Of a stretch of 64,000 bases of DNA, positions 3,415-37,850 are shown piece by piece. The stretch lies in sequence record OR621298, one strand, 5' to 3'. A program made the position numbers and the translations under genes. Below the pieces are notes generated by a model. That model saw only the letters and a program-made list of their open reading frames with translations, was not told the origin of the DNA and made no database searches. Within the stretch, counting starts at the first letter, position 1; each line of letters begins with the position of its first letter. The DNA is from Escherichia phage vB_EcoD-Elw.

Positions 3415-3491
3415 TGGCGTCCTGTGCGGGGATCGAACCCGCAAATCCTACCTTGAAAGGGTAGTGACTTTACCAGTTTGTCTAACAGGAC
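3415..3491 (-). tRNA. tRNA-Glu (anticodon TTC)
   Basis: Acceptor GTCCTGT/ACAGGAC, anticodon arm CTACC-CTTTCAA-GGTAG (perfect), T-loop TTCGATC, CCA. Confidence 0.75.
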
Positions 3492-3498
3492 TTAAATT

Positions 3499-3589
3499 TG
3501 GTGTTGGATGATGGAGTCGAACCACCCGAGACCCTTCCGAGTCGGCAGATTTACAGTCTGCTTCGCTACCTCTACGATACTAATCCAAC
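3499..3589 (-). tRNA. tRNA-Tyr (anticodon GTA), long variable arm
   Basis: 91 nt; acceptor GTTGGAT/ATCCAAC, anticodon arm GCAGA-CTGTAAA-TCTGC, long variable arm, T-loop TTCGACT, CCA. Confidence 0.75.
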
Positions 3590-4759: not shown

Positions 4760-4837
4760 TGGTGGCTCCCCGAGGATTCGAACCTACGTACCTTCCGGTT
4801 ATGAGCCGGGTGCTCATACCATATGAGCTTGAGAACC
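4760..4837 (-). tRNA. tRNA with anticodon CAT (elongator Met or Ile-lysidine type)
   Basis: Acceptor GGTTCTC/GGGAGCC (two G-U pairs), anticodon loop CTCATAA, T-loop TTCGAAT with weak T-stem, CCA. Confidence 0.55.
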
Positions 4838-6742: not shown

Positions 6743-7159
6743 ATGAGTAAATATGGTTTTGTAAATAACGGACTTAATCAAAGTATGGGCTCCCAGCAGC
6801 CCATTCCGGGTCTGGATAACCCCTACTTACAACAATTGCAACAGCGTTTAGCAGAAGCGCAACAGATGCAGCAACAACTCCAGCAAAACCCTGGAAGTGT
6901 GAGTCCTATGCAAATGATGCAGCAAATGAGCGGGCAGTCGCAAATGCCTCAACAAATGCAGCAACAGGTGCCGCAGCAGCAAGCTCAGCAGCAAACCCAA
7001 CAACCGCAGGTTTCTGCGGAAGGACAGGCAGTACTAGCCCTTTTCGAAGACTTCGCAAAGACAGAGGATGGTAAGCAGCTTGTATCACTTATGGGTAAGT
7101 TTAATAGCTTCTGCCAAAGCCAGGTTGCAAAAGCTCAAAATAGTGGTAATAACTCCTAA
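6743..7159 (+). CDS. Gln-rich low-complexity protein (138 aa), function unknown
   Basis: ATG 6743 with AAGGGGAGGAG RBS; long QQ/MQ runs, ordered C-terminal 50 aa. Confidence 0.7.
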   Translation: MSKYGFVNNGLNQSMGSQQPIPGLDNPYLQQLQQRLAEAQQMQQQLQQNPGSVSPMQMMQQMSGQSQMPQQMQQQVPQQQAQQQTQQPQVSAEGQAVLALFEDFAKTEDGKQLVSLMGKFNSFCQSQVAKAQNSGNNS

Positions 7160-7168
7160 GGAGGAATT

Positions 7169-7363
7169 ATGTGTTGCAGAAAATCTGTTTCGTGCTGCCC
7201 AATGCCTGTAGCACGTTGTTGCTCTCCAGCAATGTTTACGCAAATACCGGCGTTCAATCCGTTTGCCTTTAAGCCTACTCTTATCCTGCCCCCTAGAGTA
7301 GATTTTCAGTCAAGATTGGCCTCCCGTATGGGTGGTTGCTGTAATAAGAGTATATGGTTCTGA
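7169..7363 (+). CDS. Cys-rich small protein (64 aa, four CC dipeptides), function unknown
   Basis: ATG 7169 with AAGGAGG RBS; MCCRKSVSCCPMPVARCCSP...GGCCNKSIWF; followed immediately by an intrinsic terminator. Confidence 0.6.
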   Translation: MCCRKSVSCCPMPVARCCSPAMFTQIPAFNPFAFKPTLILPPRVDFQSRLASRMGGCCNKSIWF

Positions 7364-7379
7364 AGAACCAAACAATAAA

Positions 7380-7413
7380 GCCCCTAGTCGAAAGACTTAG
7401 GGGCTTTTCTTTT
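7380..7413 (+). terminator. rho-independent terminator ending the plus-strand island
   Basis: Stem GCCCCTA/TAGGGGC with 11-nt loop, then TTTTCTTTT. Confidence 0.7.
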
Positions 7414-7420
7414 ATCTTAA

Positions 7421-7458
7421 ATACAGAAAAGCCCTGCGCTCTCCAGGAAACGCAGGGC
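7421..7458 (-). terminator. rho-independent terminator after the SPFH gene
   Basis: Stem GCCCTGCG/CGCAGGGC followed on the minus strand by TTTTCTGTAT. Confidence 0.65.
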
Positions 7459-7483
7459 TTATTTCAGATGTTACATGCGGGTA

Positions 7484-8431
7484 TTACTTATTACGCATAT
7501 CCATAATCATTTGGCCATCATAGCCAGTGCCAACCACAGTCTGCGGTACACCACCTTGGTATTTCTGAGCACGAATCATTTCAACTTCCAGTTGCTTCCA
7601 GCGAATCATCTCAGGAGTAATGGTACGTTGCAACGCGGCGTTAGCTTCAGCTTCTTTCTTAGCTGCGTACAGTTTGGCATCTGCGTCACGCTCATTGGCA
7701 ATAGCTTGGTTATTACGAGCTTCGCGATCTGCTTCTGCTTGTTTAACCTTCTGCTGTGCTTCTTGTTCAACACGAGCCAGTTCAGCTTTCGCAGCATTAA
7801 CTTGCTCTTCACGAACTTTGGTATTCTGTACCTGTTCCATGATTACCGGTGGCAAAGTAATATCCTGAAGGAATACCTGCTTAACTGTATAACCATATGG
7901 GCGTGCATACTCTTCAACTTCCTGTTGAATTGCAGTTTGCAATTGAGCCTGAATTTTAGCATCAAACAAATCTTGTGCTTTAGGTACAGACTTACCAAAC
8001 TCACGAATAGTAGACAGTAATTTTTCAGTTACATATTTGTCTAGCGCTTGATCCTGAGTACCTGCGTTAATACGGTTAATCGGTGCCTTAGAACCATCAA
8101 ACTGCAACATAACAGTCAGGTCAACAGTGGATTTAAACTTATCCTGACTAGGAACCTGAAGTTTATCTAATTTTAGAGCAATATCTTTAGTACTAAAAGT
8201 ATCGAAAGAAGCAAAAGGATTTACAATATGAAAGCCGGGTAGTACTGGGCTAGGGTCAACTTTACCCAGGAAAGTCTGGGTTTTAACAGTACCGTCTTGA
8301 ACAACGGTATAAGAGTTAAAGGCTAGAATCAAGCCTGCTAAACCAACTATAGCACCAATACCCCAACGTTTAATAGTACGAATTACTTTCTGCTCAGAAG
8401 TCAGTTCTTTCATATTTTTAGTATTAAACAT
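7484..8431 (-). CDS. SPFH/band-7 (stomatin/prohibitin/HflC-like) membrane protein
   Basis: 315 aa; N-terminal hydrophobic helix (WGIGAIVGLAGLILAF), central SPFH-like region, C-terminal Ala/Glu/Lys/Gln coiled coil; ATG 8431 with AAGGAAA RBS. Confidence 0.8.
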   Translation of the reverse strand: MFNTKNMKELTSEQKVIRTIKRWGIGAIVGLAGLILAFNSYTVVQDGTVKTQTFLGKVDPSPVLPGFHIVNPFASFDTFSTKDIALKLDKLQVPSQDKFKSTVDLTVMLQFDGSKAPINRINAGTQDQALDKYVTEKLLSTIREFGKSVPKAQDLFDAKIQAQLQTAIQQEVEEYARPYGYTVKQVFLQDITLPPVIMEQVQNTKVREEQVNAAKAELARVEQEAQQKVKQAEADREARNNQAIANERDADAKLYAAKKEAEANAALQRTITPEMIRWKQLEVEMIRAQKYQGGVPQTVVGTGYDGQMIMDMRNK

Positions 8432-8465
8432 ATATTTCCTTTGTTTTAGTTACAGTTAATAAAAT

Positions 8466-8540
8466 TGGCCGAGGTGACAGGATTCGAACCTGCATAAAGG
8501 AATTTAGAAGACTCCTGCCTCTCCATTAGACTACACCCCG
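8466..8540 (-). tRNA. tRNA-Arg (anticodon TCT)
   Basis: Acceptor CGGGGTG/CACCTCG, anticodon arm GGAGT-CTTCTAA-ATTCC, T-arm GCAGG-TTCGAAT-CCTGT, CCA. Confidence 0.75.
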
Positions 8541-9042
8541 TTTAAGTATTTTTAAGAACTCTCGTAAAAACTCTTAAAAATACAGACGATACCGGGAGAG
8601 TCATAAGTCTCACTCATTAAGTATTTCAAGACAAAATACAGTAACGTCTATTATTTTCCAGTTTAAGTCAAGGTGACTTAGTGGTTATGTCCTGCGGTAT
8701 ACTGAGGACTCGGTTAGGATTGGGGTCATGACTTCCCGCCTTTTGCTGCTACTCAACAGGAGTTATCGCGAATTACCTGTGCTATTGTGCACCATTAGTG
8801 ACATCTCTCATGTCAGCATTTCCCACTTTGTGGATAGCTTGAAAAACTACTCCGATATGGAGAAAGAACTTCACTATCCTAGAATACCTTCTAAAGTTCT
8901 TCTTTAGCCTGGACATAGTTAAATCGTAATAAAACTATTCAGCAGACTAGTTGGTTAGTCTGGAACCAACTACCGCGTGGTTTAGGCAGTGCGCAACTAA
9001 CCTCGGAAGCTTTTACGTTAAAAGCATCAGTTATCCAGTTCT

Positions 9043-9114
9043 TACCGACCGTAGGATTCGAACCTACATCTTCCACCAGTTACGGCTTGATAATACCAAT
9101 TATACTAGGACGGC
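9043..9114 (-). pseudogene. degenerate tRNA-like element (no CCA, no anticodon stem)
   Basis: Canonical T-arm GTAGG-TTCGAAT-CCTAC and 6-bp acceptor GCCGTCC/GGTCGGT, but no convincing anticodon arm and no encoded CCA. Confidence 0.35.
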
Positions 9115-9337
9115 AGTGTTACTACATAAGTGATTTCCACACCCCACTATTTATAAATTAGGGAAGAGTTTAGGGGAGAGGTTTCAGACGCCTCATTTTA
9201 TACGTTCTAGCCACTAACCGGGATTGCCGCCCCCTGTGTACTAGTTTTACAACTAACCCACCGACTCTATTCAATGCGCTCCGGTTGGGATTCTGCACTC
9301 AGCGTAATCGGCTCGCTGTTCCCTAATTTATGAATAT

Positions 9338-9366
9338 ATTATACAGAATTTATAAGCATTTAGCAA
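9338..9366 (-). promoter_or_regulatory. sigma70-type early promoter (TTGCTA-17-TATAAT)
   Basis: Minus-strand consensus; would transcribe the 8541-9337 leader, tRNA-Arg and the SPFH gene. Confidence 0.6.
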
Positions 9367-9374
9367 ATGAATTT

Positions 9375-9809
9375 TTAGAAAAATTCACTAGCGATCAAAG
9401 CAGTTGTTTTACCGTCATAACGTCCAGGAAATTCTGCCTTAATAGTTTTCATTAATAGAGCTTTGGTAATACCTGGATTTAATTTAACCAGTTCTGCAAA
9501 ATACTCACGAATCTGAACTTCAGTTAACTGCTCCAGAGCATATTCATGCTCTAGACCTGCTAACAAGTCGAGATATTCAGCATCTGGAGTATATTCGATA
9601 TTTGCTTTTGCAGCAGAAGTCATTGTATTCTCAATTGCTTTGAACTGTGATTTAACCCAGTTAGTAAACTCTAGTCTAGATACGCAATCTTTATCAATTC
9701 GTTGTAAGTCGCCTAAAATCGTACTAAGGTGCTTGACTGACACAGTATCACCGTGTTTGCGAGCTTTTTCAATTAATTCTCGCAGCACACGAATCATATT
9801 CGTACCCAT
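9375..9809 (-). CDS. hypothetical protein (144 aa)
   Basis: ATG at 9809 overlapping the stop of the upstream small ORF (TAATG). Confidence 0.55.
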   Translation of the reverse strand: MGTNMIRVLRELIEKARKHGDTVSVKHLSTILGDLQRIDKDCVSRLEFTNWVKSQFKAIENTMTSAAKANIEYTPDAEYLDLLAGLEHEYALEQLTEVQIREYFAELVKLNPGITKALLMKTIKAEFPGRYDGKTTALIASEFF

Positions 9810-9979
9810 TATTTCATCCCCAATGCTTGGTTAAAAGATTGTTCTGTCATAACTGCTGAGACTTTGGCGAAATCAAACTTTTTAGGGTTCGTAGTGATTT
9901 CAGCAACGTTAGAAGTTTTAACAGTTTTCGTAGTACGAATACCACGAGTGTTAACACCAATAATTACAACTGATTTCAT
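9809..9979 (-). CDS. small hypothetical protein (56 aa)
   Basis: ATG at 9979 with GAGGAAG RBS; translationally coupled to the 144-aa gene. Confidence 0.45.
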   Translation of the reverse strand: MKSVVIIGVNTRGIRTTKTVKTSNVAEITTNPKKFDFAKVSAVMTEQSFNQALGMK

Positions 9980-10010
9980 ATTTCGCTTCCTCTCATTAAT
10001 TTATGAAAGT

Positions 10011-10039
10011 ATTATACAGAAATTTAAGTAGTTAAGCAA
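10011..10039 (-). promoter_or_regulatory. sigma70-type early promoter (TTGCTT-17-TATAAT)
   Basis: Minus-strand consensus motif. Confidence 0.6.
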
Positions 10040-10047
10040 GTAAATTT

Positions 10048-10497
10048 TTAAGTTTTAGTGACAACAGGTTTATAAAACGTATGTCCCTTAATCTTAGTTG
10101 TTTTCTTAAACTTCTTTGTCCAGTAAGGTTTATCTTTACCACTATGGAAGTATAGTGCTCCATGTGTAGGATCTTGTGGTAAATCAACGTAGTATATCAC
10201 TCTAGCTAAATTCTTAGCGGTTTGCCAAGCCTCATCAGTTTTATCAACTTTTGGTCTCTTAGATACCCAAGAGAACTGGTTAGACTGATATACTACTTTA
10301 CAGTAGGAATCTGGGAATTTACCGGAGTTTACACGGTTTTTAGTAACATATGCAATCGCCGTCATTCCCTTTATGCCCTCACCACGACTTTCGAAATAGA
10401 TATTTTTAGCAATGCAATCTATTTCTTTTGCATCGTGCGATGCCTGACTACTAAAGCTGAAGGTAAGGGCAGCTACTAAAAGCAAAGCTGCCTTCAT
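10048..10497 (-). CDS. secreted cell-wall hydrolase (SleB/Hydrolase_2-like)
   Basis: Start placed at ATG 10497 (AGGAG RBS); N-terminal signal peptide MKAALLLVAALTFSFSSQA; cell-wall hydrolase-like core. Confidence 0.7.
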   Translation of the reverse strand: MKAALLLVAALTFSFSSQASHDAKEIDCIAKNIYFESRGEGIKGMTAIAYVTKNRVNSGKFPDSYCKVVYQSNQFSWVSKRPKVDKTDEAWQTAKNLARVIYYVDLPQDPTHGALYFHSGKDKPYWTKKFKKTTKIKGHTFYKPVVTKT

Positions 10498-28084: not shown

Positions 28085-30874
28085 GTGTTTTCTATTCTCC
28101 AAGGTCACGCCGGATTTTCTCGTGATTTAGCAACAGGTATTTGGCGAGAAATCAAAGCGGAAGATTATACCTTTGCCAAGCGATTCTCGAAAAAGCATCC
28201 AGAAGGTAAACCAGCTTCTATGCCCTTCAAATTTGATGTAATAGAAGAGCATGACCCGCAAAGCCTTGCCGAAATGTTACCACTTATGAGACGTTTAACG
28301 TCTGACCCTCATATCGTTGCGGTACGAGGTCGATGTCTTGCACCTAAAAATAACGTGCGACGTAAGAAAGGTAACTTTAATGTATCTAATCCTAGTAATA
28401 TTATTGCTATGGACGTGGATGGTATCCTAGATACCGGTGGGTATGACAAGTTTAACCTTGTTGGTATGGCCCGCCACATTATTAAGATGTTGAATAGTAT
28501 TAGTGAGGACATGTTCCCTCTTGATGCAGGCTTTATAGCTCATGCATCGTCTTCGGCTGGGCTTAAACCAGGTATCCGAATGCACTTAATGCTAGAATCT
28601 AACGTCAAGGTAACTCAGGGTCAGTTAAAGTTCTTATTTACATCTATCAACGATAGTAGTAAGCAAAAATTTGGTTTTGATATTGCCGACTTAGCTTATT
28701 ATTCATCTGTCCAGCTCCACTATTTTGCCGACCCCTTATTTAGTGATGGTATTGTTGATCCGTTTAAAGCGGAGAGTAAGCCACGTCTGGTGTATGTTAA
28801 AGGTTCGAAAGTAAATTTGCCCAATAATCTGGTTGACTATGAAACAACTAGAGGGGAGTTTAAGGAAGAGTTTTATTCTTTACTTGATCAAATTAAAGGC
28901 AAAAAGATCGCGTCTGATAAAGTAGAAGAAACCATCAGCGAATTGGAAGAAGCTGAGGATGGGGTGTACCTGCGTATTATCCCCAAACTATACCATAGAG
29001 CATTAGAGGATGGTGTTGATTTTGCATGGCTAGAACGTGAGATTAAACCCGCTTTATCTGAATATATTGCAACTAAAGATAACAGTCGTAATATTCAAGA
29101 TTACTTTAATAACGGTCGTAAGCAGGCTCTCAAAGCGTTTGTTAATAATTCTAAACGTGAGATTCCATTAAATCTGAAAGGTGTTCCGCTCAAGAAGTTA
29201 GAAGTGGATTCTCCACCAGAAGTTCCGTACCTGAAGATTAACATTGTGCCTCCAAAAGGCCATATAACATTTGTTAAGGCAAGTCTTGGTACTGGTAAAA
29301 CTACGGCAGTAACTAAATGGCTGGACGCAGGTGTTCTTCCTGGCAACTTTTTAGCAGTTACAAATACTAGAGCACTGGTATCTTCAAACGCTAAGAAATT
29401 TAGCGCAGGACAATATGATAAGTCTGTAGATATGCTCAACTTTAAACGTGGAGCTATTGATCGTATGTCCACAACTATTCACTCTTTGCATAAGTTCAAA
29501 AGTTTTATTGGTCAAATAGATACCATTTTTATTGATGAATGTGATGCTGTAATGAATGATCTATTATTCGCACCTGTTGTTAAGCAACGTCGCGAATGTA
29601 TTCAAGTTCTACGTGACATCCTCATGACAGCTAAAACTGTAATTCTATCAGATGGTGATATTAGTGCCGAAACTATTGAAGCATATGGTTCTCTAATTGA
29701 TTTTGATAAACCAGTAGCATTTTATAATCATCACCGTAAGATGCTGTCAAAAGCTCATGCTTATGAGTTCCCGGATGAGTCCAGTATTTGGGTTGCACTT
29801 CAGACTTCTCTAGAGATGGGTGAGAAATCTATCCTAGTATCTGATTGTGGGCCGGATGAACTGAATGAGAAGGGCATGGCGTTGCGTCGTAATACGGGTG
29901 CATTAGTTAAGGAAATCCACTCAAACTCTACGTCTGATGTAGATATTAGACGTATTCTGGATTACACAACTAATGAGCTAATTGACCAACAAATTGATTG
30001 CTTATTATGTAGTCCATCTGTAACGAGTGGTGTTGACTTTAACTATTTTGATAACGTATTCGTTATCACTAGAACTAGCAACCAAGCGCCAAACATGCGT
30101 TTCCAAGCAATCAGGCGCGACCGTGGTGCTCAGAATATCTATTATTTTATTGATAAATCCACTAGTGGGTTCTCCGCAGGTTCTGAACAATATAATATTG
30201 ATGAAGGTTGGCTGGAGTTAGCACAGCAATTATACGCACGTCGCAGAGAACTAGAATCTAGGAACTATACTAGTACTTTACGTTATTACTTGCTTGATCA
30301 GGGTGCAACTATTGATATTTTCAGCGAAAGCTGGGGAACTATTGAAGGTGCTGGTAAAGAATACACAGAAGAGCGAATCAAAGCTATCCTACATTCAACT
30401 CCGGATTACTGTGCACCACGTCATGCGGATGCGTATGAGGCTAAACTACTTCTTGTTCGCTATTATCATCTTGAGTCTATTAAAGATGTAACAGTTGAGC
30501 ATGTTGAACAATATATCAAAGATAAACCGAATGATCGAGCTGCATTCTTCCATAAGATGCACGAGATGTTCTGGGAAGATATTAAGAAGTGTTCAAATGT
30601 GACCATTAAACCATTCATAGAGGCTCTGAAAGGTAAGAAGAAAGACTTCTTCCTTAAAACAGGTCAGAGTGCTAACCCAAAATATGCTAGAATGTATCTT
30701 GGTATGATGGGTATTGGTAAGGATATGAACACTGAAAATATTGTAGACTGGTACAGAACCTATTGTAAAATCGAGTGTATGCCAATCCCATATAAGTTTA
30801 TGACTGATGAGGAGAAACATATGCATGATGAAGCAATGGCAGAGCTAGGTGCTAGAAATGACAGTGAAGAATAA
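28085..30874 (+). CDS. large P-loop NTPase, putative replication initiation / primase-helicase-like protein (929 aa)
   Basis: GTG start with AGGAG RBS; Walker A KASLGTGKTT and Walker B IFIDECDAV in the central region; N-terminal 300 aa with acidic motifs (IIAMDVDG, FDIADL) loosely resembling primase/polymerase-type domains. Confidence 0.65.
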   Translation: MFSILQGHAGFSRDLATGIWREIKAEDYTFAKRFSKKHPEGKPASMPFKFDVIEEHDPQSLAEMLPLMRRLTSDPHIVAVRGRCLAPKNNVRRKKGNFNVSNPSNIIAMDVDGILDTGGYDKFNLVGMARHIIKMLNSISEDMFPLDAGFIAHASSSAGLKPGIRMHLMLESNVKVTQGQLKFLFTSINDSSKQKFGFDIADLAYYSSVQLHYFADPLFSDGIVDPFKAESKPRLVYVKGSKVNLPNNLVDYETTRGEFKEEFYSLLDQIKGKKIASDKVEETISELEEAEDGVYLRIIPKLYHRALEDGVDFAWLEREIKPALSEYIATKDNSRNIQDYFNNGRKQALKAFVNNSKREIPLNLKGVPLKKLEVDSPPEVPYLKINIVPPKGHITFVKASLGTGKTTAVTKWLDAGVLPGNFLAVTNTRALVSSNAKKFSAGQYDKSVDMLNFKRGAIDRMSTTIHSLHKFKSFIGQIDTIFIDECDAVMNDLLFAPVVKQRRECIQVLRDILMTAKTVILSDGDISAETIEAYGSLIDFDKPVAFYNHHRKMLSKAHAYEFPDESSIWVALQTSLEMGEKSILVSDCGPDELNEKGMALRRNTGALVKEIHSNSTSDVDIRRILDYTTNELIDQQIDCLLCSPSVTSGVDFNYFDNVFVITRTSNQAPNMRFQAIRRDRGAQNIYYFIDKSTSGFSAGSEQYNIDEGWLELAQQLYARRRELESRNYTSTLRYYLLDQGATIDIFSESWGTIEGAGKEYTEERIKAILHSTPDYCAPRHADAYEAKLLLVRYYHLESIKDVTVEHVEQYIKDKPNDRAAFFHKMHEMFWEDIKKCSNVTIKPFIEALKGKKKDFFLKTGQSANPKYARMYLGMMGIGKDMNTENIVDWYRTYCKIECMPIPYKFMTDEEKHMHDEAMAELGARNDSEE

Positions 30875-31091
30875 AAAATGGGAAACAAGGAAGTTCCCAG
30901 TAAAAGAACGTAAAGTTCCTGTTTATGATACTTCGGAAAAGCTATGTAGGGTGGTACCACGTAGATTAGCTGGTATCCCTAACATATCCGAGTGGTTACT
31001 TAAACAACGGAAAACAAACGTGTCTCTTCGCATCGGCTTTGAATTAGATAAAGTCTATGCTGAACTTGCTTCTTTGCTCAAGGAATCGTAA
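30858..31091 (+). CDS. hypothetical protein (about 77 aa)
   Basis: Start placed at ATG 30858 (AGGTG RBS); overlaps the end of the 929-aa gene. Confidence 0.45.
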   Translation: MTVKNKKWETRKFPVKERKVPVYDTSEKLCRVVPRRLAGIPNISEWLLKQRKTNVSLRIGFELDKVYAELASLLKES

Positions 31092-31099
31092 AAATTTAT

Positions 31100-31128
31100 T
31101 TGCTTTCAGGAAAAATTTTCTGTATAAT
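31100..31128 (+). promoter_or_regulatory. sigma70-type promoter (TTGCTT-17-TATAAT, extended TG)
   Basis: Consensus motif followed by a GAGAGAGGAG RBS. Confidence 0.65.
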
Positions 31129-31159
31129 AGATTCATAAATTTGAGAGAGGAGTTTAAAT

Positions 31160-31864
31160 ATGGCCGGTTCTCGCAGAAAGAAACATATCCATGAAATCCC
31201 GGATGAAGTCTTTAAAAAAGTTATAGAGCATCTGGAGAACGGTGGTACTAAGAAAGCAGCTTGTGAGATGCTCGGCGTATCATCCAATCCAACTATGGAA
31301 AGGATGATTGAAGAGTGGCAAGACCGCCAGATTCAAGTTGCCGAAATGAAGAAAAAGAAACGTGGCACACTCATTGAAGGTATTGAGTTGGCCAACGTTA
31401 TTGAACAGTATTTATCTGGTGATTCTTTTGAAGAGATTGCCGATCGTAATTATCGCTCTGTAGCAATGGTTAAATCTGTTCTGGAACGCTATGGTGCTCT
31501 GCTTCGTTTGAACGATATTGTAGACCCGTTGAATCCTCCTATTATTCCTGATGATGCTGTAGCAGAAGAATTTGAAGTTGGTGAGCTTGTTTGGGTTCCT
31601 GGATACCAGTGTATCGGTGAAATCAAAAAAGCAATGGATAATCCTGTTGGTTGCTACCGTGTATGGCTTCTATCGGAAGGCAAACAACAGAACGTTCATT
31701 ATATGAATTATGAGCTGGCTTCTGTTAAACACCTGGAAAAGTTAGGAGTTGATGTAAAATCTCTGGGGTATAAATGGACTCGGGAAGAAGTCATTACGTT
31801 GATTAACGAAGCTGTTAAGGCCGCCTTGAAACTTGATAAAGAAAAAGGAAAACGCCGTGAGTAG
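31160..31864 (+). CDS. putative helix-turn-helix DNA-binding protein (234 aa)
   Basis: N-terminal HTH-like segment GGTKKAACEMLGVSSNPTMERMIEEW; basic C-terminus. Confidence 0.6.
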   Translation: MAGSRRKKHIHEIPDEVFKKVIEHLENGGTKKAACEMLGVSSNPTMERMIEEWQDRQIQVAEMKKKKRGTLIEGIELANVIEQYLSGDSFEEIADRNYRSVAMVKSVLERYGALLRLNDIVDPLNPPIIPDDAVAEEFEVGELVWVPGYQCIGEIKKAMDNPVGCYRVWLLSEGKQQNVHYMNYELASVKHLEKLGVDVKSLGYKWTREEVITLINEAVKAALKLDKEKGKRRE

Positions 31865-32108
31865 ACTAACTGATTTACTTAAAGATGGGGAAGTAAAAAC
31901 ACTATATCGTAGAAGCTGGGGTAACGATAATAACGGCTTAGTATTACTAACTTTAGATGCTGACTCGGATGTAGCTACTCAGCATACCTGGGTAGCCGGT
32001 AACTATCCATATAGCGAGGTTGTTTCATTAACAGTATGCGAAGCTATTGCAGACGATTGGGAGGTTGCCAGCATCGAGGATATGCTCGCTGTTGGCCTGG
32101 TGGAGTAA
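31857..32108 (+). CDS. hypothetical protein (about 83 aa)
   Basis: GTG start at 31857 preceded by AAGGAAA; track start 31833 is TTG. Confidence 0.45.
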   Translation: MSRLTDLLKDGEVKTLYRRSWGNDNNGLVLLTLDADSDVATQHTWVAGNYPYSEVVSLTVCEAIADDWEVASIEDMLAVGLVE

Positions 32109-32125
32109 CTACTTAAAAATTTCAG

Positions 32126-32154
32126 TTGCTTAATCCTATAATTCTTGATATAAT
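32126..32154 (+). promoter_or_regulatory. sigma70-type promoter (TTGCTT-17-TATAAT)
   Basis: Consensus motif. Confidence 0.65.
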
Positions 32155-32211
32155 ATTCTCATAGTTTGAAAGAACTATTCTGTTTAATTCTTAATTAAGG
32201 AAATATAAAAT

Positions 32212-32622
32212 ATGACTACTCCAACTCAGTGGACTGATGAACTGTTCGAAAAAATGTCTTCCGAATACGTTGCTCGTATGGAGCAATTCCCAGAGGATGA
32301 ACGTCCTGGTGTTAGCATGGAAATTGTTAGCGAAATTGCCCAGGAAAATGGTGTAACTCCGAACGGTTTTCGTATGAAGCTAACTAAAGCAGGTTTGTAC
32401 ATCAAGAAAGCTGCTGGCTCTGCTTCTAAATCTAGTGCATCTACTGGAGAAAAAGCTTCTGGTGGTTCTCGCACTTCTAAAGCTAAAGCTCATGCCGACC
32501 TTCGTTCCGCATTCTCTGATGCTGGCCTAGCACCAGATTTTCTGGATGATGCAATTATTGACAAACTGACCGGTAAAGCGGCTGCTCATCTGGCAGAAGC
32601 AATCCGAGCTATCACTAAGTAA
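32212..32622 (+). CDS. hypothetical protein (136 aa)
   Basis: ATG 32212 with AAGGAAAT RBS. Confidence 0.6.
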   Translation: MTTPTQWTDELFEKMSSEYVARMEQFPEDERPGVSMEIVSEIAQENGVTPNGFRMKLTKAGLYIKKAAGSASKSSASTGEKASGGSRTSKAKAHADLRSAFSDAGLAPDFLDDAIIDKLTGKAAAHLAEAIRAITK

Positions 32623-32659
32623 TTTTTAGATAAATCCACCAACAAAAGGAACTATAGCT

Positions 32660-32956
32660 ATGACTAAAGCTGAAATTATTGCACAGTGCGAAAAATTTGG
32701 TGAGTTTTATCTTCATTACGAGAAACTTCGTCAGAAAGGAACCACGTACCTTCAGGGTACGATGGAATTTGATCCAGCCCAAGATAAATATCTGGCTGAG
32801 CGTATTAAACGTGAACGTATTCGTAAAGCGAAAGATGATGAAATTCTTGTCTTCTCTCGTACTAATGATAGTTTCCGTTTTATTCCTGTCGAGAAAGTCC
32901 GTCGTGTGACTAGCCTCCAATCAGAGTTAGATCGTGCTTCTCCAGTAGGCCGATAA
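32660..32956 (+). CDS. hypothetical protein (98 aa)
   Basis: ATG 32660 with AAAGGAAC RBS; followed by a terminator. Confidence 0.6.
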   Translation: MTKAEIIAQCEKFGEFYLHYEKLRQKGTTYLQGTMEFDPAQDKYLAERIKRERIRKAKDDEILVFSRTNDSFRFIPVEKVRRVTSLQSELDRASPVGR

Positions 32957-32966
32957 GAAACCAATT

Positions 32967-32988
32967 AGCCCCTATATGGGGCTTTTTG
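32967..32988 (+). terminator. rho-independent terminator
   Basis: Stem AGCCCC/GGGGCT with TATAT loop followed by TTTTT. Confidence 0.65.
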
Positions 32989-33006
32989 TGTATTTGGGAT
33001 ATGTAA

Positions 33007-33315
33007 ATGAGCGAACAGGTAAATCAAAACTATGAAGGACACGTTGATGACCAGTCCATCATACTTTGGGAGAAGGAGGGGGAACAAGTAAGATTAACAG
33101 TATCTGAATTTCGTGGGAATCTATACATGGGTATTCGTTACTGGCTTCTTGATATTAATGATGAATGGTTTCCAACGAAATCTGGCTTCTCTTTTCCTTA
33201 CACCCTAGAAACAACATCACAGCTTTTCTATGCGTTTACACAGATTCTTAGCGAATCTGAGGTTTTACATGAAGTACAGAAACGAGCTGAAGAACTCAAA
33301 GCCAAGAATGCCTAG
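33007..33315 (+). CDS. hypothetical protein (102 aa), possible ssDNA-binding fold
   Basis: ATG 33007; weak resemblance to PC4/p15-like proteins (EFRGNLYMGIRYWLLD...WFPTKSGFSFP); assignment tentative. Confidence 0.55.
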   Translation: MSEQVNQNYEGHVDDQSIILWEKEGEQVRLTVSEFRGNLYMGIRYWLLDINDEWFPTKSGFSFPYTLETTSQLFYAFTQILSESEVLHEVQKRAEELKAKNA

Positions 33316-33342
33316 TTCTTGGCTTTTTCTTTATAAATGTAT

Positions 33343-33371
33343 TTGCTTTCAACTCAGTTTTGTTATATAAT
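33343..33371 (+). promoter_or_regulatory. sigma70-type promoter (TTGCTT-17-TATAAT)
   Basis: Consensus motif; a hairpin plus U-run at 33301-33334 precedes it. Confidence 0.65.
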
Positions 33372-33400
33372 ATTTATATAAATTGATAAGAGGATCAATT

Positions 33401-33589
33401 ATGAAAGTAACACTTCCAAAAATTCAAGCAAAGTTAAATCTAGTATCGAATGCTAGAAATAACTATCTAGATAACTTTGGTGGAATCAACGATAAAGCGT
33501 ACAAAGATGCGTGGTTGAAAGAAGCACAAGAGTTAGCCGATCTCATTGCTCAGTATAATAAAGAACTACAGGTAGAAATGAATGACTAA
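33401..33589 (+). CDS. hypothetical protein (62 aa)
   Basis: ATG 33401 with AGAGGA RBS. Confidence 0.5.
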   Translation: MKVTLPKIQAKLNLVSNARNNYLDNFGGINDKAYKDAWLKEAQELADLIAQYNKELQVEMND

Positions 33590-34553
33590 TGTAAAAGACT
33601 TTATTAAACGTTGCCAAGAAGCATATTATCAAGGTATGTCTTTAATCTCTGATGAGGAGTATGATTGCCTGGTAAAACGCTTCCCACTAGAAGAAGAGAT
33701 CGGGCCTAAGGGCGATATTCCACATCTGTATCGTATGTATTCTTTACAGAAAGTTTATTATAATCGTGGAGATAAACCCCCATTTAACCCATTAGGTCAG
33801 GTAGAAACTGACAAGTTAGATGGTTGTGCGATTTCTCTACTATATATTAATGGCGAATTTGTTCAAGCACTAACTCGTGGTAATGGTATTCTAGGGAATG
33901 ATGTCACAAGCAACGTAAGATTGCTGAACATTCCTAAAAAGATTTCCCAAAAAGTACCTACTCAAATCACTGGTGAAGTTCTAATTACAAAAGAAGTAGA
34001 AAATAAACGTAACTTTGCCTCTGGTGCTATTAACCTAAAAGATAGTGATGCTTTCGTACAACGTATCGGGGAAGGTGGTTTAATCTTCGTTGCATACGGT
34101 ATCCAGTGTTCTGCTGAATCTGTAGGTATTACAGAATCATATTTAAAAGATATGCTTTGGCTAGAGAATGAAGACTTCTTAACAGTTGTTAATGTGCGTT
34201 CCTTCTTTAGATGGATTCCGACGGACGGTAAAGTTGTTCGTATTAATGACAACAACAAATTCTTCCGAGAAGGCTGGACTAATAAATTCCCTCGCGGGGC
34301 GTTCGCTATTAAAGAGGATGAAGAAGGAGAGATTACAACTCTTACTAAAGTTGAATGGCAGGTAGGGGCTTCTGGTAAAGTAACTCCAGTTGGTTATTTC
34401 GAACCGGTAATTATTGATGATGCTACAATTGTTAAAGCGACTCTTAATAACGTTGATTATATTAACTCTCTCGATCTAGAGATCGGTTGCCAGATTCGAG
34501 TGATTCGTGCTGGTGGTGTAATCCCGTGCATAGTAGAGCGAGTATACTATTAA
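33582..34553 (+). CDS. NAD-dependent DNA ligase, N-terminal (adenylation) subunit
   Basis: 323 aa; KxDG adenylation motif in KLDGCAISLLYINGEFVQALTRGNG and an OB-fold-like C-terminal part; separate ORF from the Zn-finger/HhH/BRCT part. Confidence 0.8.
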   Translation: MTNVKDFIKRCQEAYYQGMSLISDEEYDCLVKRFPLEEEIGPKGDIPHLYRMYSLQKVYYNRGDKPPFNPLGQVETDKLDGCAISLLYINGEFVQALTRGNGILGNDVTSNVRLLNIPKKISQKVPTQITGEVLITKEVENKRNFASGAINLKDSDAFVQRIGEGGLIFVAYGIQCSAESVGITESYLKDMLWLENEDFLTVVNVRSFFRWIPTDGKVVRINDNNKFFREGWTNKFPRGAFAIKEDEEGEITTLTKVEWQVGASGKVTPVGYFEPVIIDDATIVKATLNNVDYINSLDLEIGCQIRVIRAGGVIPCIVERVYY

Positions 34554-34754
34554 TACATAACCCTTTGCTACCCATCTACCATATAGGAATTATAAAGTGG
34601 TTATTGACATTTTCGCCGCTTAGGTATATACTATTATCATTCAGTTGAGGGATAGAAAGTTATGGCGAGGGTAAGCAAAGTTAGTTAAAATTGTAGTTGC
34701 TAAATGCTTAAATACTTGCTATAATATTTATATAAATTGATAAGGAAGAAATTT

Positions 34755-35535
34755 GATGAAAATCGAAATTCCAACACAATGTCCCTCTTGTGGTTCTAAG
34801 CTAGATCTTGTCAACGGACAATTATTCTGTCGTAATAAGTCCAACTGTCCAGCGCAATCAAGCAAGTTAATTGAGAACTTCTGTTCAAAAATGAAGTTAA
34901 AGGGCTTTGGCCCAAAAACTATTGAGAAGCTGGAGCTGACGAAGATTTCAGAACTATTTTACCTAACCGAAGAAGATTTGGTTAGAGCCGTGGGTAGCAA
35001 GGTTGCCGCTAAGTTAATTAGCGAATTAAATACTAAAGTTCGCGGAGACATTGACTTTGGTTCAGTTCTCGGTTCTTTAGGAATCCCTCTAATTGGAGAG
35101 GTTGCAGCAAAGAAATTATCCCAAAATTGCACTAGCTTTCACGATGTGAAGGCTGACGGCAAGGCTGGAGAAAATTACAAAGCCTGGCTAAATTCCCCAC
35201 AAGGCAAGGATGTTATTAAACTACCGTGGAAATTTTCAACTGGTATTAAGGGCACTAAAGCTGACGTCATCATTACAGATGAATTAGTTGCCCAGCCAAA
35301 TGGAATCGCGGTATGTATTACCGGATCTTTGCAAGATTTTGCAAATCGAACGGATGCAACAAACTATTTAGAAGGTCTAGGATATACGGTTAAGAAATCC
35401 GTTACCAAAGACGTCAAATACCTAATCTGTGAGGATGAATCAAAACGTTCTTCCTCATCTTATAAGAAAGCCGAAACGAATGGGATAGAAATCCTGTCGA
35501 TTAAAGAACTATTGGAGAAAAATAATAATGTCTAA
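34755..35535 (+). CDS. NAD-dependent DNA ligase, C-terminal (Zn-finger/HhH/BRCT) subunit
   Basis: Start at ATG 34755 (AAGGAAG RBS); Cys4 finger CPSCGS...CRNKSNCPAQ, HhH-like region, BRCT-like C-terminus. Confidence 0.8.
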
Positions 35536-36295
35536 ACTGAACTGGAACGTAGAAGGTGTAACCGAGTCTCTGAAAGCAAAAGCCACTGCTCTGGGTGTTT
35601 CTGTAATCTCTCAAGAACAGGTAGCTGCTATCGCTGCTGAACTGGCTGCTGAAACTGGCAAAGATGTTACTGCTCGCTCTGTTGGCTCTAAACTGCGTAA
35701 AGAAGGTTTTGAAGTACAGAAAGCTAACGAAGTACAGAAATCCCCGTGGACTCCTGAGCAGGAAGCTGAACTGGTTGATTTCCTGAACGCTCATGCTGGT
35801 CAGTATACCTATGCTGAAATCGCTGCTGCTGTAGCTGGTGGTCAGTTCGGTGCTAAGCAGGTACAGGGTAAGATCCTGAGTCTGGAAATGACCGCTTCTG
35901 TTAAACCAACTGAAAAAGCTGCTGCTGTTCGTTCCTTTACTCCGGATGAAGAAACTGATTTTGTTAATCAGGTTGTTGCTGGTGCTACTATTGAAGCTAT
36001 CGCTGCTCACTTCGGCCGCAATATCAAGCAGATCCGTGGTAAAGCTCTGAGCCTGCTTCGTGAAGGTCGTATTGCTGCTATGCCGGTACAGGAAACTTCA
36101 AGTGCTAAAACTCGTGAAGATCTGTTAGAAGGTCTGGATCTGGTTAACATGACTGTTGCTGAGATCGCTGAGAAAACCGGTAAGTCTGAGCGTGGTGTTA
36201 AATCTATGCTGTCTCGTCGTGGTCTGGTTGCTAAGGACTATGATGGTGCCGCTAAGCGTGCTAAACTGGATGCAAAAGCTGCGGCTGCTGAATAA
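35528..36295 (+). CDS. Ala-rich protein with three HTH-like repeats (255 aa), probably abundant DNA-binding protein
   Basis: Three related segments (VSVISQEQVAAIAAELAAETGKDVTARSVGSKLRKEG; ATIEAIAAHFGRNIKQIRGKALSLLREG; MTVAEIAEKTGKSERGVKSMLSRRG); strongly E. coli-like codon usage; followed by a strong terminator. Confidence 0.65.
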   Translation: MSKLNWNVEGVTESLKAKATALGVSVISQEQVAAIAAELAAETGKDVTARSVGSKLRKEGFEVQKANEVQKSPWTPEQEAELVDFLNAHAGQYTYAEIAAAVAGGQFGAKQVQGKILSLEMTASVKPTEKAAAVRSFTPDEETDFVNQVVAGATIEAIAAHFGRNIKQIRGKALSLLREGRIAAMPVQETSSAKTREDLLEGLDLVNMTVAEIAEKTGKSERGVKSMLSRRGLVAKDYDGAAKRAKLDAKAAAAE

Positions 36296-36312
36296 TCTGG
36301 TAAATTAAACCT

Positions 36313-36346
36313 AAGGGGAGGGGGCTATGCTCCTTCCCCTTTTTGC
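36313..36346 (+). terminator. rho-independent terminator (GC-rich 10-bp stem plus U-run)
   Basis: GGGGAGGGGG..CTCCTTCCCC stem with the ATG at 36327 in its loop, followed by TTTTT. Confidence 0.6.
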
Positions 36347-36377
36347 ATTTAGAAGGCACGAAAGCGTGCAAAGGAGA

Positions 36378-37850
36378 ATGACCTTGTTTAACGTGCAAGC
36401 TGTAGTGTTGAAGATGCTTCTAGCTTCCGAACAGAAGCAAATAGCATTGGAAACATTCTCAAAACTGCATAAAGATCATTTTAATGACGCTTTCTCCTCA
36501 ATTTACCAAGCCGTCCAGAATTATTATAAAAAATATAACACAATGCCGTCCATTGACGCACTTATGCTTGAAGCTAATAGGAACGCCCGCCTTTCTCAAG
36601 CTCTAGTCGTCTTAGCTAACACTCAAATTCCAGAAGTGAGCATGGAACAGGCACTTGAAGTCCTAGAAGCCGAATATACACAGGATTTATTCCTGAAGCT
36701 TCTAGAAACAGACGTGCTTCAAGATTTAACAATGCTGGATCAGGGAGAAATTCTCAACCGAGTTGCCTCCCTTCACTTAAAATTAGAAGAGAAAGTAACG
36801 AATACTGGAAAAGTATTCAACGCAGATAACATGCGTATTTTCCAGAGAGAAGAAGATACCAAACTGAACTTAATCGCTCTTGGTATTTGTAATGAGTTCG
36901 ACGCTCAAATTGGTTTAGCTCGCACAGAAACGTTACTGCTTGGTGGTTGGCGTGGTACTGGTAAATCCATTATCTGTTCAAACATACAGGTTCAGCAATA
37001 TTTGAATGGAGATATTGCTCCATACTTCTCAATTGAGATGAAAGAACACGAAGTATTTAGACGTAATCTAGCCATGTTAGCTGGTGTATCAGCACTAGCA
37101 ATGCGTAATAATACTCTAGAAGGTGCAGCTCTGTTGAGATTAGCCAGAACTAGAGCCAGAATGTTTAATGGTGGTGAAGAGCTTTTTGATAACTTCGTTA
37201 AACAGTACACGATGGCTAAGATGAGTGATTTCTACGATATGGAGAGTAAGCTAATAGAGGGATATGAACTACATACTCCTATGATTATCGTTTATGACCC
37301 TGAACTGTCCATTACAACAGTTGACGTAGAATTAAATAAATTAGTTGCTAGATATGGTGATAAAGTTACAGTAGCTTTACTGGACTATATTAACCAAACC
37401 CGACTTCCAGATTCTAAAACCATTGATATGTATGACTGGAAAGAACAGATGGTTGTTAGCTCGTCTTTCAAATCTATCTGCCAGAAACATAACGTGGCTG
37501 GTGTAGCTCCTTACCAGATCGATCAAGATGGTAGAACACGTATGTCAAAGGGGATTCTTGATTCCGCAGACATGGCTGCTAATCTTAATGCTGCAAAAGC
37601 TGATAATGGTCAAGGTGCTATTATGTTTGACTTCGTTAAGACTCGTTCTTCTGATAGCGTGAAGTTTATGCCTAAGATGAACTGGGAAACTCTGCGAATG
37701 GATAATACAACTAACCTAGCAATGGAAGATATATCTCAAATGGAAGCTGAGTTCGTTATCCCTATTGAGAAGGATAAGCCGGCTCAACCTAAACGTGCTA
37801 AGAAAGACAAAACTGAAAATTTAACAGGTGAACAGGCCAGCGATATATGA
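36378..37850 (+). CDS. DnaB-like replicative helicase (start uncertain)
   Basis: Walker A GGWRGTGKS and Walker B-like IIVYDPE; longest ORF starts at ATG 36327 inside the terminator hairpin; ATG 36378 follows AAGGAG with a very short spacer. Confidence 0.65.
   Translation: MTLFNVQAVVLKMLLASEQKQIALETFSKLHKDHFNDAFSSIYQAVQNYYKKYNTMPSIDALMLEANRNARLSQALVVLANTQIPEVSMEQALEVLEAEYTQDLFLKLLETDVLQDLTMLDQGEILNRVASLHLKLEEKVTNTGKVFNADNMRIFQREEDTKLNLIALGICNEFDAQIGLARTETLLLGGWRGTGKSIICSNIQVQQYLNGDIAPYFSIEMKEHEVFRRNLAMLAGVSALAMRNNTLEGAALLRLARTRARMFNGGEELFDNFVKQYTMAKMSDFYDMESKLIEGYELHTPMIIVYDPELSITTVDVELNKLVARYGDKVTVALLDYINQTRLPDSKTIDMYDWKEQMVVSSSFKSICQKHNVAGVAPYQIDQDGRTRMSKGILDSADMAANLNAAKADNGQGAIMFDFVKTRSSDSVKFMPKMNWETLRMDNTTNLAMEDISQMEAEFVIPIEKDKPAQPKRAKKDKTENLTGEQASDI

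Follow-up and report, generated by a model that had tools for sequence, protein, structure and literature searches.

The minus strand of a 64,000-nucleotide (nt) stretch of Escherichia phage vB_EcoD-Elw, called the window below, carries at nt 8541–9374 what is probably the gene for RNAX, a folded, stable noncoding RNA of about 790 nt that acts as RNA. Judged by alignment and gene order, the window is DNA of a T5-like phage and the interval is the orthologue of T5 rnaX. The reading draws on a strong promoter of its own, the lack of a coding signature, gene-like conservation, helices that covary in a strand-specific manner, and a slot whose content is interchangeable among phages. A sequence-only reading had left the interval open between decayed tRNA genes, a structured RNA and a replication or regulatory site; the structured RNA is what the covarying helices, the missing codon pattern and a conservation equal to that of the flanking genes bear out. 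It is possible, at a clearly lower probability, that RNAX founds an unclassified family of Demerecviridae RNAs that are large, modular and pseudoknotted. Such a family would be a functional counterpart of GOLLD and ROOL beside tRNA islands, displaying a tRNA-shaped arm and working as an RNA-only or RNA–protein assembly in early infection. Its candidate range would comprise Tequintavirus, Epseptimavirus, the Sugarland-like Klebsiella phages, Novosibvirus and Priunavirus.

The orthology is seen in both sequence and placement. The T5 RefSeq record NC_005859 lists nt 40848–41566 (minus strand, 719 nt) as a misc_RNA, rnaX (T5s08), under the description "RNAX, stable RNA with unknown functions"; 'promoter P 16-17' lies on one side of it and tRNA-Arg on the other. 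The window matches this segment at 91.7% over 516 nt, 99.3% over 138 nt and 98% over the promoter block (92–99% over the shared blocks), and its interval lies on the same strand between P16-17 and tRNA-Arg(UCU), with a YqeY-like gene upstream and the SPFH gene further downstream. The two RNAs differ in that T5 has a 7-nt loop where the window has a 147-nt insert (in domain A), an insertion of about 85 nt in module M3, flanked by a 23-nt duplication, and a pair A5:U68 where the tRNA-shaped arm of the window has U5.U68. An independent T5 record, AY587007, annotates inside rnaX only a pseudo-tRNA (41285–41356). Other records carry at this locus no annotation, small hypothetical proteins on either strand, or a 'tRNA' called OTHER, Pseudo-TAA, Ser, Sec, Gln or Pro.

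The features of the transcription unit and its upstream neighbour are as follows.

9375–9809, minus strand: gene for a YqeY-like protein of 144 amino acids (aa), upstream of RNAX, given for context only (PHROG 1460, 'tRNA amidotransferase')
9366–9338, minus strand: sigma-70-type early promoter TTGCTA-17 nt-TATAAT, 10 of 12 consensus matches, equivalent to T5 'promoter P16-17'
8466–8540, minus strand: tRNA-Arg(UCU) with encoded CCA, directly abutting the RNAX 3′ end (ARAGORN, Rfam, T5 annotation)
7484–8431, minus strand: SPFH/Band_7 gene (open reading frame and domain match)
7429–7460, minus strand: first intrinsic terminator on this strand and end of the transcription unit, a hairpin of 13 base pairs (bp), 7 of them G:C, with a T-run

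The promoter is the best sigma-70-type site within 7300–10100, and every lineage keeps it, the Klebsiella phages, PM135 and PR1 among them. From the predicted transcription start, an A at about 9331, to nt 8541 there are 791 nt of noncoding sequence. No open reading frame (ORF) in 8541–9331 exceeds 45 aa on the minus strand (the longest have 42–45 aa) or 60 aa on either strand (59–60 aa on the opposite one); the promoter at 9338–9366 and the roughly 800 nt free of a credible ORF stand as they had been described. Between the promoter and nt 7460–7429 there is no terminator-like site on the minus strand, and the transcript should therefore run into tRNA-Arg and the SPFH gene. Read in this way, the unit should consist of the promoter, 791 nt of noncoding sequence, tRNA-Arg(UCU), SPFH and the terminator. 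The terminator at 7429–7460 corresponds to an 'efficient bidirectional rho-independent terminator' of T5, beside a major T5 nick site.

For a codon-pattern test the window was aligned to Epseptimavirus relatives at 74–88% identity, and substitutions were counted by phase.

RNAX M3a: substitutions by phase 12/7/3 and 10/10/5; indels of 1 nt
RNAX M1: 7/5/12; indels of 1 nt
RNAX core against relative L008: 46/50/54; indels not multiples of 3
SPFH coding sequence (CDS): 12/5/44 and 13/4/44; indels of 3 nt
56-aa DUF7616 gene: 6/3/17; no indels

The flanking genes show a third-position excess and RNAX, in the same comparison, does not. Protein-coding conservation in relatives had been put forward as an argument that could overturn the noncoding view; none is found, there being no codon-type substitution pattern against Epseptimavirus. 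Epseptimavirus genomes are 84–89% identical to the window in M1 and 85–87% in M3a, compared with about 84% in the SPFH CDS and 70–82% in the YqeY-like CDS, which aligns over 22–34% of its length. The conservation of M1 and M3a equals or exceeds that of these two flanking CDSs, and RNAX blocks are still recognisable in genera in which the flanking protein is only 29–35% identical. The signal is also stranded. RNAalifold energies are −25.3 on the sense strand versus −15.1 kcal/mol on the reverse complement in one comparison and −47.0 versus −42.0 kcal/mol in another, and many of the maintained pairs are G:U on the sense strand, that is, A.C mismatches on the other. The GC content is that of the flanks and gives no signature. 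Similarity searches of the rest of the window and of the T5 tRNA region found no paralogue of any RNAX module. In Rfam, no family other than tRNA is reached at E ≤ 10 in nt 8000–10000 of the window, nor at E ≤ 1–5 in nine relatives.

As its sequence and its relatives present it, RNAX is modular, with a 5′ stem and pseudoknotted domain, a core with a slot, a multi-helix 3′ domain and a terminal AU hairpin. Its parts, in transcript order, are the following.

9153–9331, minus strand: domain A, stem P1 with a 147-nt insert (inverted repeat, minimum-free-energy (MFE) fold, short and long forms)
9300–9318, minus strand: P2 hairpin CAGCG-AGCCGAUUA-CGCUG, 100% paired in 10 distinct sequences
9260–9264, minus strand: putative pseudoknot 3′ strand UCGGU inside the conserved block GAAUAGAGUCGGUGGGUU, pairing with the P2 loop
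9178–9194, minus strand: domain A hairpin GAGG-CGUCUGAAA-CCUC, with variants GAGG/CCUC, GUGG/CCAC and GGGG/CCUC and another hairpin in some relatives
8977–9148, minus strand: core domain M1, the sole module found in every homologue
9043–9114, minus strand: tRNA-shaped arm in the M1 slot (Rfam RF00005, 35.5 bits)
9009–9035, minus strand: invariant GAUAACU (9029–9035), then hairpin GCUUUU-AACGU-AAAAGC (9009–9025), 95.8% paired with two compensatory pairs
8828–8976, minus strand: middle module M2, the most variable, keeping the AAACCACG block and the AGUUGGUU hairpin
8949–8971, minus strand: conserved M2 hairpin AGUUGGUU-CCAGACU-AACCAACU (covariation)
8864–8901, minus strand: M2 hairpin AAGAACUU/AAGUUCUU (inverted repeat)
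8681–8826, minus strand: M3a, multi-helix, closed by GUGG (8823–8826) with CCAC (8681–8684) (RNAalifold)
8545–8583, minus strand: terminal AU-rich hairpin of about 17 bp, 5 nt upstream of tRNA-Arg (MFE, inverted repeat)

Stem P1 is formed by the first 13 nt of the transcript (9331–9319) with nt 9165–9153 and is the outermost helix of the MFE fold. It belongs to the strongest inverted repeat of the region, nt 9148–9168 with 9316–9336 (21 nt, 90% complementary), which the sequence-only reading does not mention. In T5 and other 'short-form' phages P1 closes a 7-nt loop; in the window it encloses the 147-nt insert. Its positions 1–9 are paired in 15–16 of 16 distinct variants, and position 10 alternates between G:C, G:U and A:U. 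The annotated 5′ end of RNAX in T5 (41566) sits 7 nt inside this stem, not at the predicted +1. Within domain A follow P2, a variable hairpin for which different phages carry three unrelated alleles, GAAUAGAGUCGGUGGGUU, a variable stretch, a swappable hairpin (the one at 9178–9194, which appears as a palindrome on the plus strand) and AAACUCU, which leads into the P1 3′ strand. Covariation predicts a pseudoknot between the P2 loop GCCGA (9308–9312) and UCGGU (9260–9264). The pairing reads CCGA:UCGG in the window, CAGA:UCUG in Proteus phage PM135 and CAUA:UAUG in Providencia phage PR1, and the closing P2 pair changes from G:C to A:U in PM135. All 100 cells of P2 and the pseudoknot are paired, versus 16–48% with the partners slid, with three compensatory events across genera. 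Extending the pseudoknot or an AGAGU/ACUCU helix by one pair was rejected; the position concerned varies (G, C, U or A) without compensation.

The core M1 begins with AGUGGGG and ends with AAACCAC, closed by GUGG (9144–9147) with CCAC (8977–8980); the closure is AAUGGGU/ACCCAUU in PM135 and PR1. Its 5′ motif AGUGGGGUGUGGAAAUCACUUAUGUAGUAACACU is followed by a small hairpin with a conserved loop, the junction UUAUGU..UAACACUG, the slot, AAGAA..GAUAACUG, a covarying hairpin and GCACUGCC-U-AAACC. No single register could be assigned to the small hairpin of the 5′ motif, since two alternative registers suit different lineages. The M1 of a single Epseptimavirus RNAX, used as nhmmer query, retrieves that of PR1 at E = 8e-7 and that of PM135 at E = 1.2e-3. 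In M2, the conserved hairpin changes from GUUGGUU/AACCAAC to GUUGAUU/AAUCAAC in phage GSW6 (L007), a compensatory exchange of G:C for A:U. The inverted repeat AGACTAGTTGGTTAGTCT, quoted earlier for this region, is present at 8944–8961; the conserved helix is instead the overlapping TAGTTGGTT/AACCAACTA at 8948–8956/8964–8972.

Module M3 spans nt 8839–8541. For 21 distinct sequences, RNAalifold gives 64 pairs in 10 helices, 99.3% paired versus at most 48% with partners slid; seven pairs are changed on both sides, concentrated in the hairpins 8799–8815 and 8689–8709. A guessed long-range pairing of UGGGGU (9141–9146) with ACCCCA near 8725 was discarded, its partner not being conserved (CCTAAG in Epseptimavirus). 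M3a holds a second GAUAACU, so the heptamer occurs twice on the minus strand, at 9029–9035 in M1 and at 8762–8768 in M3. Both modules also start with AGUGGG (9144–9148 and 8823–8827) and close with GUGG/CCAC; they may be ancient duplicates or have a common binding site. The AU hairpin recurs at about 90% conservation in Klebsiella T5-like phages and, in part, in Pectobacterium phage DU_PP_V, in both cases before unrelated genes; it may serve as a site for RNase III-type processing or as a portable stabiliser.

The tRNA-like element lies exactly where the sequence-only reading had put it, at 9043–9114 on the minus strand. It scores 35.5 bits against RF00005 (gathering score 29; E = 3e-5 in a 2-kb search, 1e-3 over the whole window), in an alignment that leaves an 18-nt anticodon region unaligned. 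ARAGORN makes no tRNA call for the arm in the window; on the arm of relatives it reads Ser(act) or SeC(tca). Of the T arm and acceptor, both described as perfect, the T arm is so (GUAGG-UUCGAAU-CCUAC), whereas the 7-bp acceptor contains G1.U72 and the mismatch U5.U68. The D stem has 3–4 bp with GG in its loop, and the variable loop has 5 nt. An anticodon stem had been declared missing; one of 3 bp (G:U, C:G, C:G) exists with a 6-nt loop GUAACU and covaries in relatives, and it leaves the D-to-T segment 1 nt shorter than in a canonical tRNA. The absence of CCA is borne out: the discriminator A is followed by AGA, and this 3′ flank, AAGA, is invariant, whereas the tRNA-Arg of the same phage encodes its CCA. 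A canonical decoding tRNA gene was therefore rejected for lack of a 5-bp anticodon stem with a 7-nt loop (U33, purine 37), of a paired 1:72 and of CCA, although the Rfam tRNA model is passed. A covariance-model call of ordinary tRNA genes had been named as evidence against a structured element; the call is obtained, yet the element called is not an ordinary tRNA.

A decaying tRNA pseudogene was rejected as well, since the substitutions respect pairing rather than accumulate regardless of it. In 28 distinct sequences of the cloverleaf and the following hairpin, 87.7% of the cells are paired versus 32–47% with the partners slid; 10 of 26 pairs have changed on both sides with pairing kept, and the T arm is 98.6% paired. 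For instance, T-stem pairs change from U:A to C:G and from A:U to G:C, the D stem has exchanged GUAU/UUAU for AGUU/GACU, and in the acceptor U6:G becomes U6:A and U5.U68 becomes A5:U68 or U5:A68. Pair 1:72 is never Watson–Crick (G.U in 16 of 28, G.A in 12 of 28). The U5.U68 mismatch occurs in 21 of the 28 variants and is common to the Tequintavirus, Epseptimavirus and Klebsiella-phage versions, and thus looks ancestral rather than a recent damage. The anticodon region comes in alleles, either a 6-nt loop (GUAACU or UUCACC) on a stem of 3–4 bp or a 20-nt insert with an extra hairpin, and the latter covaries too (GGGGA/UCCCC versus GGAGAU/AUCUCC). What is conserved or covarying are the parts of an L-shape: the 7+5-bp acceptor–T stack, the T loop UUCGAAU, the D-loop GG and the 5-nt variable loop. 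On these comparisons the arm is a tRNA mimic that is being maintained, not a gene that is dying. None of the T5 tRNAs stands out as closest to it, the best match (54/72) being to much longer Ser tRNAs, and a parent tRNA was not assigned. A 'valine-like' reading of the 6-nt loops (AAC/CAC) is a curiosity and was not relied on.

The slot that holds the arm is interchangeable. It contains the short-arm mimic, the long-arm mimic or unrelated hairpins, the last as ordinary hairpins in some Epseptimaviruses (L007, L010, L020, L037) and in PM135 and PR1. These two phages have a T-loop minihelix elsewhere in RNAX, UUAUCUG...CUGGG-UUCAACU-CCCAG-UAA-CAGAUAA in PM135 and ACGGG...GAGG-UUCGAUU-CCUC-CA-CCCGU in PR1, both below the Rfam tRNA model; a tRNA-like handle thus recurs in the family without a fixed place. 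Damaged mimics occur as well: a 10-nt deletion of the D arm in L059 (711–853), a T-stem C-to-A change in L057 (9489–9641), and, in the Obesumbacterium phage L060 (1501–1594), a CDS insertion that has removed the 3′ acceptor strand. Vibrio phage pVp-1 (L076, about 3441–3512) has, immediately after its YqeY-like gene and within the tRNA island, a tRNA-like sequence that is not called as a tRNA and whose T arm reads GUAGG-UUCGACU-CCUAC.

RNAX is widespread. A 1-kb query around it matches 441 phage records, nearly all from T5-like Salmonella and Escherichia phages (best, Salmonella phage SCF at 99.4%), and a distant-mode search finds it in about 525 (Salmonella 268, Escherichia 132, Klebsiella 81); the tRNA-like module is found in 490. 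The SPFH protein gives 273 Salmonella and 138 Escherichia records, and from these nearly equal counts nearly every T5-like genome of Salmonella and Escherichia hosts carries RNAX. As a marker for more distant T5-like phages the SPFH protein was given up because it leads to T4-like phages. Pattern scans of viral contigs were also abandoned, 5 of 9 new loci being chance matches; IMG/VR holds few T5-like contigs.

Within Markadamsvirinae RNAX is mosaic. T5 is without domain A; in several Epseptimaviruses (L008, 417–899; L047; L063) an HNH homing-endonuclease gene replaces it between promoter and M1. L007, L008 and L063 have an inserted 169-aa ORF that separates RNAX from tRNA-Arg. Downstream of RNAX stand a 169-aa CDS in GSW6 and MET_P1, small ORFs in the Klebsiella phages and other genes in PR1. 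In the Klebsiella Sugarland-like phages RNAX comprises domain A, an additional module of about 170 nt, M1 (carrying the long-arm mimic) and a portion of M2, but M3 is missing. PM135 (Novosibvirus) and PR1 (Priunavirus) encode RNAs of about 700 nt at the same place, after the YqeY-like gene and before tRNA-Arg, from a TTGCTA/TATAAT-type promoter; they share the P2–pseudoknot core, AAACUCU, the M1 motif, GAUAACUG with its hairpin, and GCC-N-AAACC. The motif AGUCAUGAC flanked by GGG/CCC is found in the window within M3 and in PM135 within a module that precedes M1, which suggests that modules are also reordered between phages. In PM135 (L066, about 6950–7265) a second TTGCTA...TATAAT promoter after tRNA-Arg is followed by a structured-looking noncoding stretch before tRNA-Tyr; this stretch shares the block CACUGCGAAGnUACGGG with a module inside PR1 RNAX, as if modules move between stable-RNA loci.

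Among known systems, RNAX resembles most the large ornate GOLLD and ROOL RNAs. These phage and prophage RNAs of about 600–800 nt have many helices and pseudoknots and lie beside tRNA islands; tRNAs are sometimes embedded in a linker of GOLLD, and the function of both is unexplained (PMC12286853, PMC5737381). Similarly, RNAX exceeds 500 nt, has several domains and a predicted pseudoknot, is phage-encoded beside a tRNA island, embeds a tRNA-like element and combines a conserved core with variable regions. RNAX is nevertheless not a member of GOLLD or ROOL, because it has no covariance-model match and no homology to them in sequence or structure (Rfam, E ≤ 10). It resides in virulent Demerecviridae of Enterobacterales, and its tRNA-like element is a non-decoding mimic inside a domain, unlike the GOLLD tRNA in a linker. 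An RNA-only, homo-oligomeric nanocage is a further feature of GOLLD and ROOL as a kind.

Smaller parallels are found in RNAs with a tRNA-like domain. In YrlA, the tRNA-like domain of tmRNA, the MALAT1 mascRNA and the tRNA-like structures of plant viruses, the acceptor, T arm and elbow persist while a decoding anticodon loop is missing, and they offer a handle to enzymes that recognise tRNA; like RNAX, these RNAs have a tRNA-shaped module embedded in or attached to a bigger RNA. RNAX differs from YrlA and tmRNA in that no Rfam match to them exists, the ARAGORN tmRNA search is negative and no Ro/Rsr gene lies nearby. Its arm lacks CCA and G3:U70, and its acceptor ends are continuous with the host domain, not free. 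T5 also encodes seven small stable RNAs (RNAI, III, IV, 1, 2, 2H and 3) of 70–170 nt, some of which have been called tRNA-like; like RNAX they are cotranscribed with tRNAs from early promoters, but RNAX is about 790 nt long and its modules have no sequence relation to them. The T4 species 1 and 2 RNAs are likewise small stable RNAs of a phage tRNA region.

A mechanism can be proposed for RNAX as a folded RNA gene product. Host RNA polymerase would transcribe RNAX, tRNA-Arg and the SPFH gene as one unit. RNase P matures the 5′ end of every tRNA and so must cut at G1 of tRNA-Arg; this cut would create the RNAX 3′ end exactly where the T5 annotation ends rnaX. A stem that starts at +1 and a long 3′ hairpin are a classic protection against 5′-end-dependent RNase E and 3′ exonucleases. 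Here P1 at +1 and, 5 nt short of the 3′ end, the AU hairpin of 17 bp may shield the two ends, which would explain why RNAX is listed as a stable RNA in T5. The RNA would fold into successive domains, namely the optional pseudoknotted A, the universal core M1 with its slot, M2 and the multi-helix M3, and act in trans as a folded particle. The tRNA-shaped arm would be a structural mimic, with the L-shape and elbow parts kept and the needs of decoding or EF-Tu absent. In the weakest step, RNAX may serve early in infection as a scaffold or decoy showing a tRNA elbow and acceptor–T minihelix to tRNA-binding factors. The candidate targets are RNase P, the YqeY-like protein encoded just upstream and host tRNA-directed (defence) enzymes; any one of them taken as the specific partner carries only a minority of the confidence placed in RNAX itself. 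YqeY/GatB-tail domains are tRNA-binding modules, and the order of YqeY-like gene and RNAX is syntenic in four genera (29% protein identity in PM135, 35% in PR1), so the protein is a possible partner. Its assignment is transitive: the 144-aa protein has no direct match in Pfam and PDB sequence searches, and homologues about 52% identical to it carry PF09424 (YqeY).

Several points weigh against this account. 'Stable RNA' is a database label of the T5 RefSeq record. The proposed partners, whether the YqeY-like protein or RNase P at the mimic, are named through guilt by association, and Vibrio phage pVp-1 has a YqeY-like gene in its tRNA island with no recognisable RNAX. No accessory module is essential to the family, not even the tRNA-shaped arm: T5 does without domain A, the phages of Klebsiella, Proteus and Providencia lack M3, and some phages have another element in place of the arm. 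M1 and M3 are in good part invariant, and many predicted helices are without covariation support. The MFE z-score of the whole RNA is only −1.22, which is uninformative. There are only about five independent lineages, so that the shuffle controls overstate significance.

Alternatively, RNAX may be a precursor cassette that is cut by RNase P (at the mimic and tRNA-Arg), RNase III (at the AU hairpin) and RNase E into several small stable RNAs, which we regard as unlikely, though it survives better than the other alternatives. T5 annotates its seven other short stable RNAs, of which RNAI, III, IV, 1, 2 and 3 have 100–170 nt and some are tRNA-like; phages differ by gain, loss and rearrangement of RNAX modules; M1 and M3 are each closed by a GUGG/CCAC helix of their own; and an acceptor–T minihelix is a minimal substrate of RNase P. 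However, the arm sits inside M1, with its acceptor forming the foot of a slot in which other phages have an ordinary hairpin, and cleavage there would therefore nick one domain, not separate two. Moreover, the T5 annotation lists one RNA of 719 nt, and there is no paralogy between the RNAX modules and the other small RNAs.

A cis-acting 5′ leader that controls, stabilises or times tRNA-Arg and the SPFH mRNA, as a processing platform, riboswitch-like sensor or decay barrier, is more doubtful still. One promoter and one terminator bracket RNAX, tRNA-Arg and SPFH, and domain A, with its P1 closure and conserved junction, looks like an aptamer at the very 5′ end. On the other hand, no Rfam riboswitch, leader or other cis-regulatory match reaches its gathering score, there is no expression platform and no sense-strand terminator or anti-terminator inside RNAX, and the next feature is a tRNA, not a ribosome-binding site. 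Domain A is absent from T5, relatives keep RNAX while changing the downstream gene (GSW6, MET_P1, the Klebsiella phages and PR1), and we know of no precedent for a 790-nt leader before a tRNA. The word 'leader' in the sequence-only reading thus holds for the transcription unit and fails for the RNA, since T5 annotates a separate stable RNA and the genes downstream differ among relatives that keep it.

Nonfunctional debris, made of decayed tRNA genes and homing-endonuclease scars and kept by linkage to the promoter and tRNA-Arg, is improbable. The HNH endonuclease genes inserted here in some relatives, the mosaic of modules, the few damaged mimics (L059, L060 and L057) and the U5.U68 left unrepaired in 21 of 28 variants would fit such a history. 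Yet conservation equals that of the coding neighbours, at least 20 base pairs over four modules show compensatory changes, and blocks are recognisable where the flanking protein is only 29–35% identical. The U.U mismatch is itself conserved across lineages, not random. Nor do decayed tRNA genes, in the plural, fit the interval: a single tRNA-like match is found in it, its arms are maintained by compensation, and the other modules have no similarity to tRNA.

Still less probable is an element acting at the level of DNA, such as an origin, a nick or recombination site or an array of protein-binding sites. The long noncoding stretch with many inverted repeats and strongly invariant blocks could suggest one; the T5 origins are poorly mapped, and a major T5 nick site is about 1 kb away. 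However, many of the pairs kept are G:U, which exist on the transcribed strand alone, folding favours the sense over the antisense strand, and a dedicated promoter precedes RNAX in every lineage. The replication or DNA-level site raised earlier is accordingly disfavoured, and the check for origin-like features gave neither iterons nor AT-rich unwinding features (similarity searches found no repeats, and the GC content equals that of the flanks). That the interval encodes small proteins, such as the 42–60-aa ORFs of some pipelines, is hardly credible: automatic annotations do call 'hypothetical proteins' on both strands in several records, but the calls differ in strand and position between records, and there is no codon periodicity, indels are of 1 nt and the ORFs are not conserved between lineages.

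RNAX is already named, and left uncharacterised, in T5 databases; neither its conservation over five genera or more nor its modular pseudoknotted architecture nor the nature of its tRNA mimic appears to have been described, and the family is absent from Rfam. No paper treating RNAX was found in the searchable library when the literature on it and on T5 stable RNAs was sought. The papers on BF23, retrons and PARIS were of use only for T5 deletion boundaries; the viable T5 deletions of the tRNA region, 30661–38625 and 29191–32442, stop short of rnaX at 40848–41566 (PMC11464382). Recognising an RNAX family would correct hundreds of phage annotations and drop a spurious 'tRNA' from censuses of phage tRNAs. 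Large structured noncoding RNAs are rare in bacteria and phages, and the function of GOLLD and ROOL is unexplained partly because their sources are metagenomes or poorly tractable hosts. RNAX would offer a tractable model, T5 on E. coli K-12, for the giant RNAs associated with tRNA islands and, if it is a counterpart of GOLLD and ROOL, the first representative of that class in a genetically tractable system. The question touches on phage tRNAs versus tRNA-targeting defence systems. If RNAX is only a processing cassette or a leader, the interest is local to T5 biology.

The neighbours of RNAX are the YqeY-like gene, the DUF7616 gene, an endolysin and SPFH. The DUF7616 gene is a 56-aa ORF two genes upstream of RNAX (9809–9979, minus strand) with a full-length Pfam match (E = 5e-33), and it is the best-conserved protein gene nearby at the nucleotide level, 94% identical to Epseptimavirus. 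Elsewhere in the window, the Rfam tRNA model finds a tRNA at 4763–4837 on the minus strand (40.3 bits) that ARAGORN misses; it adjoins tRNA-Ser(gct) and is probably the T5 tRNA-Ile2(CAU).

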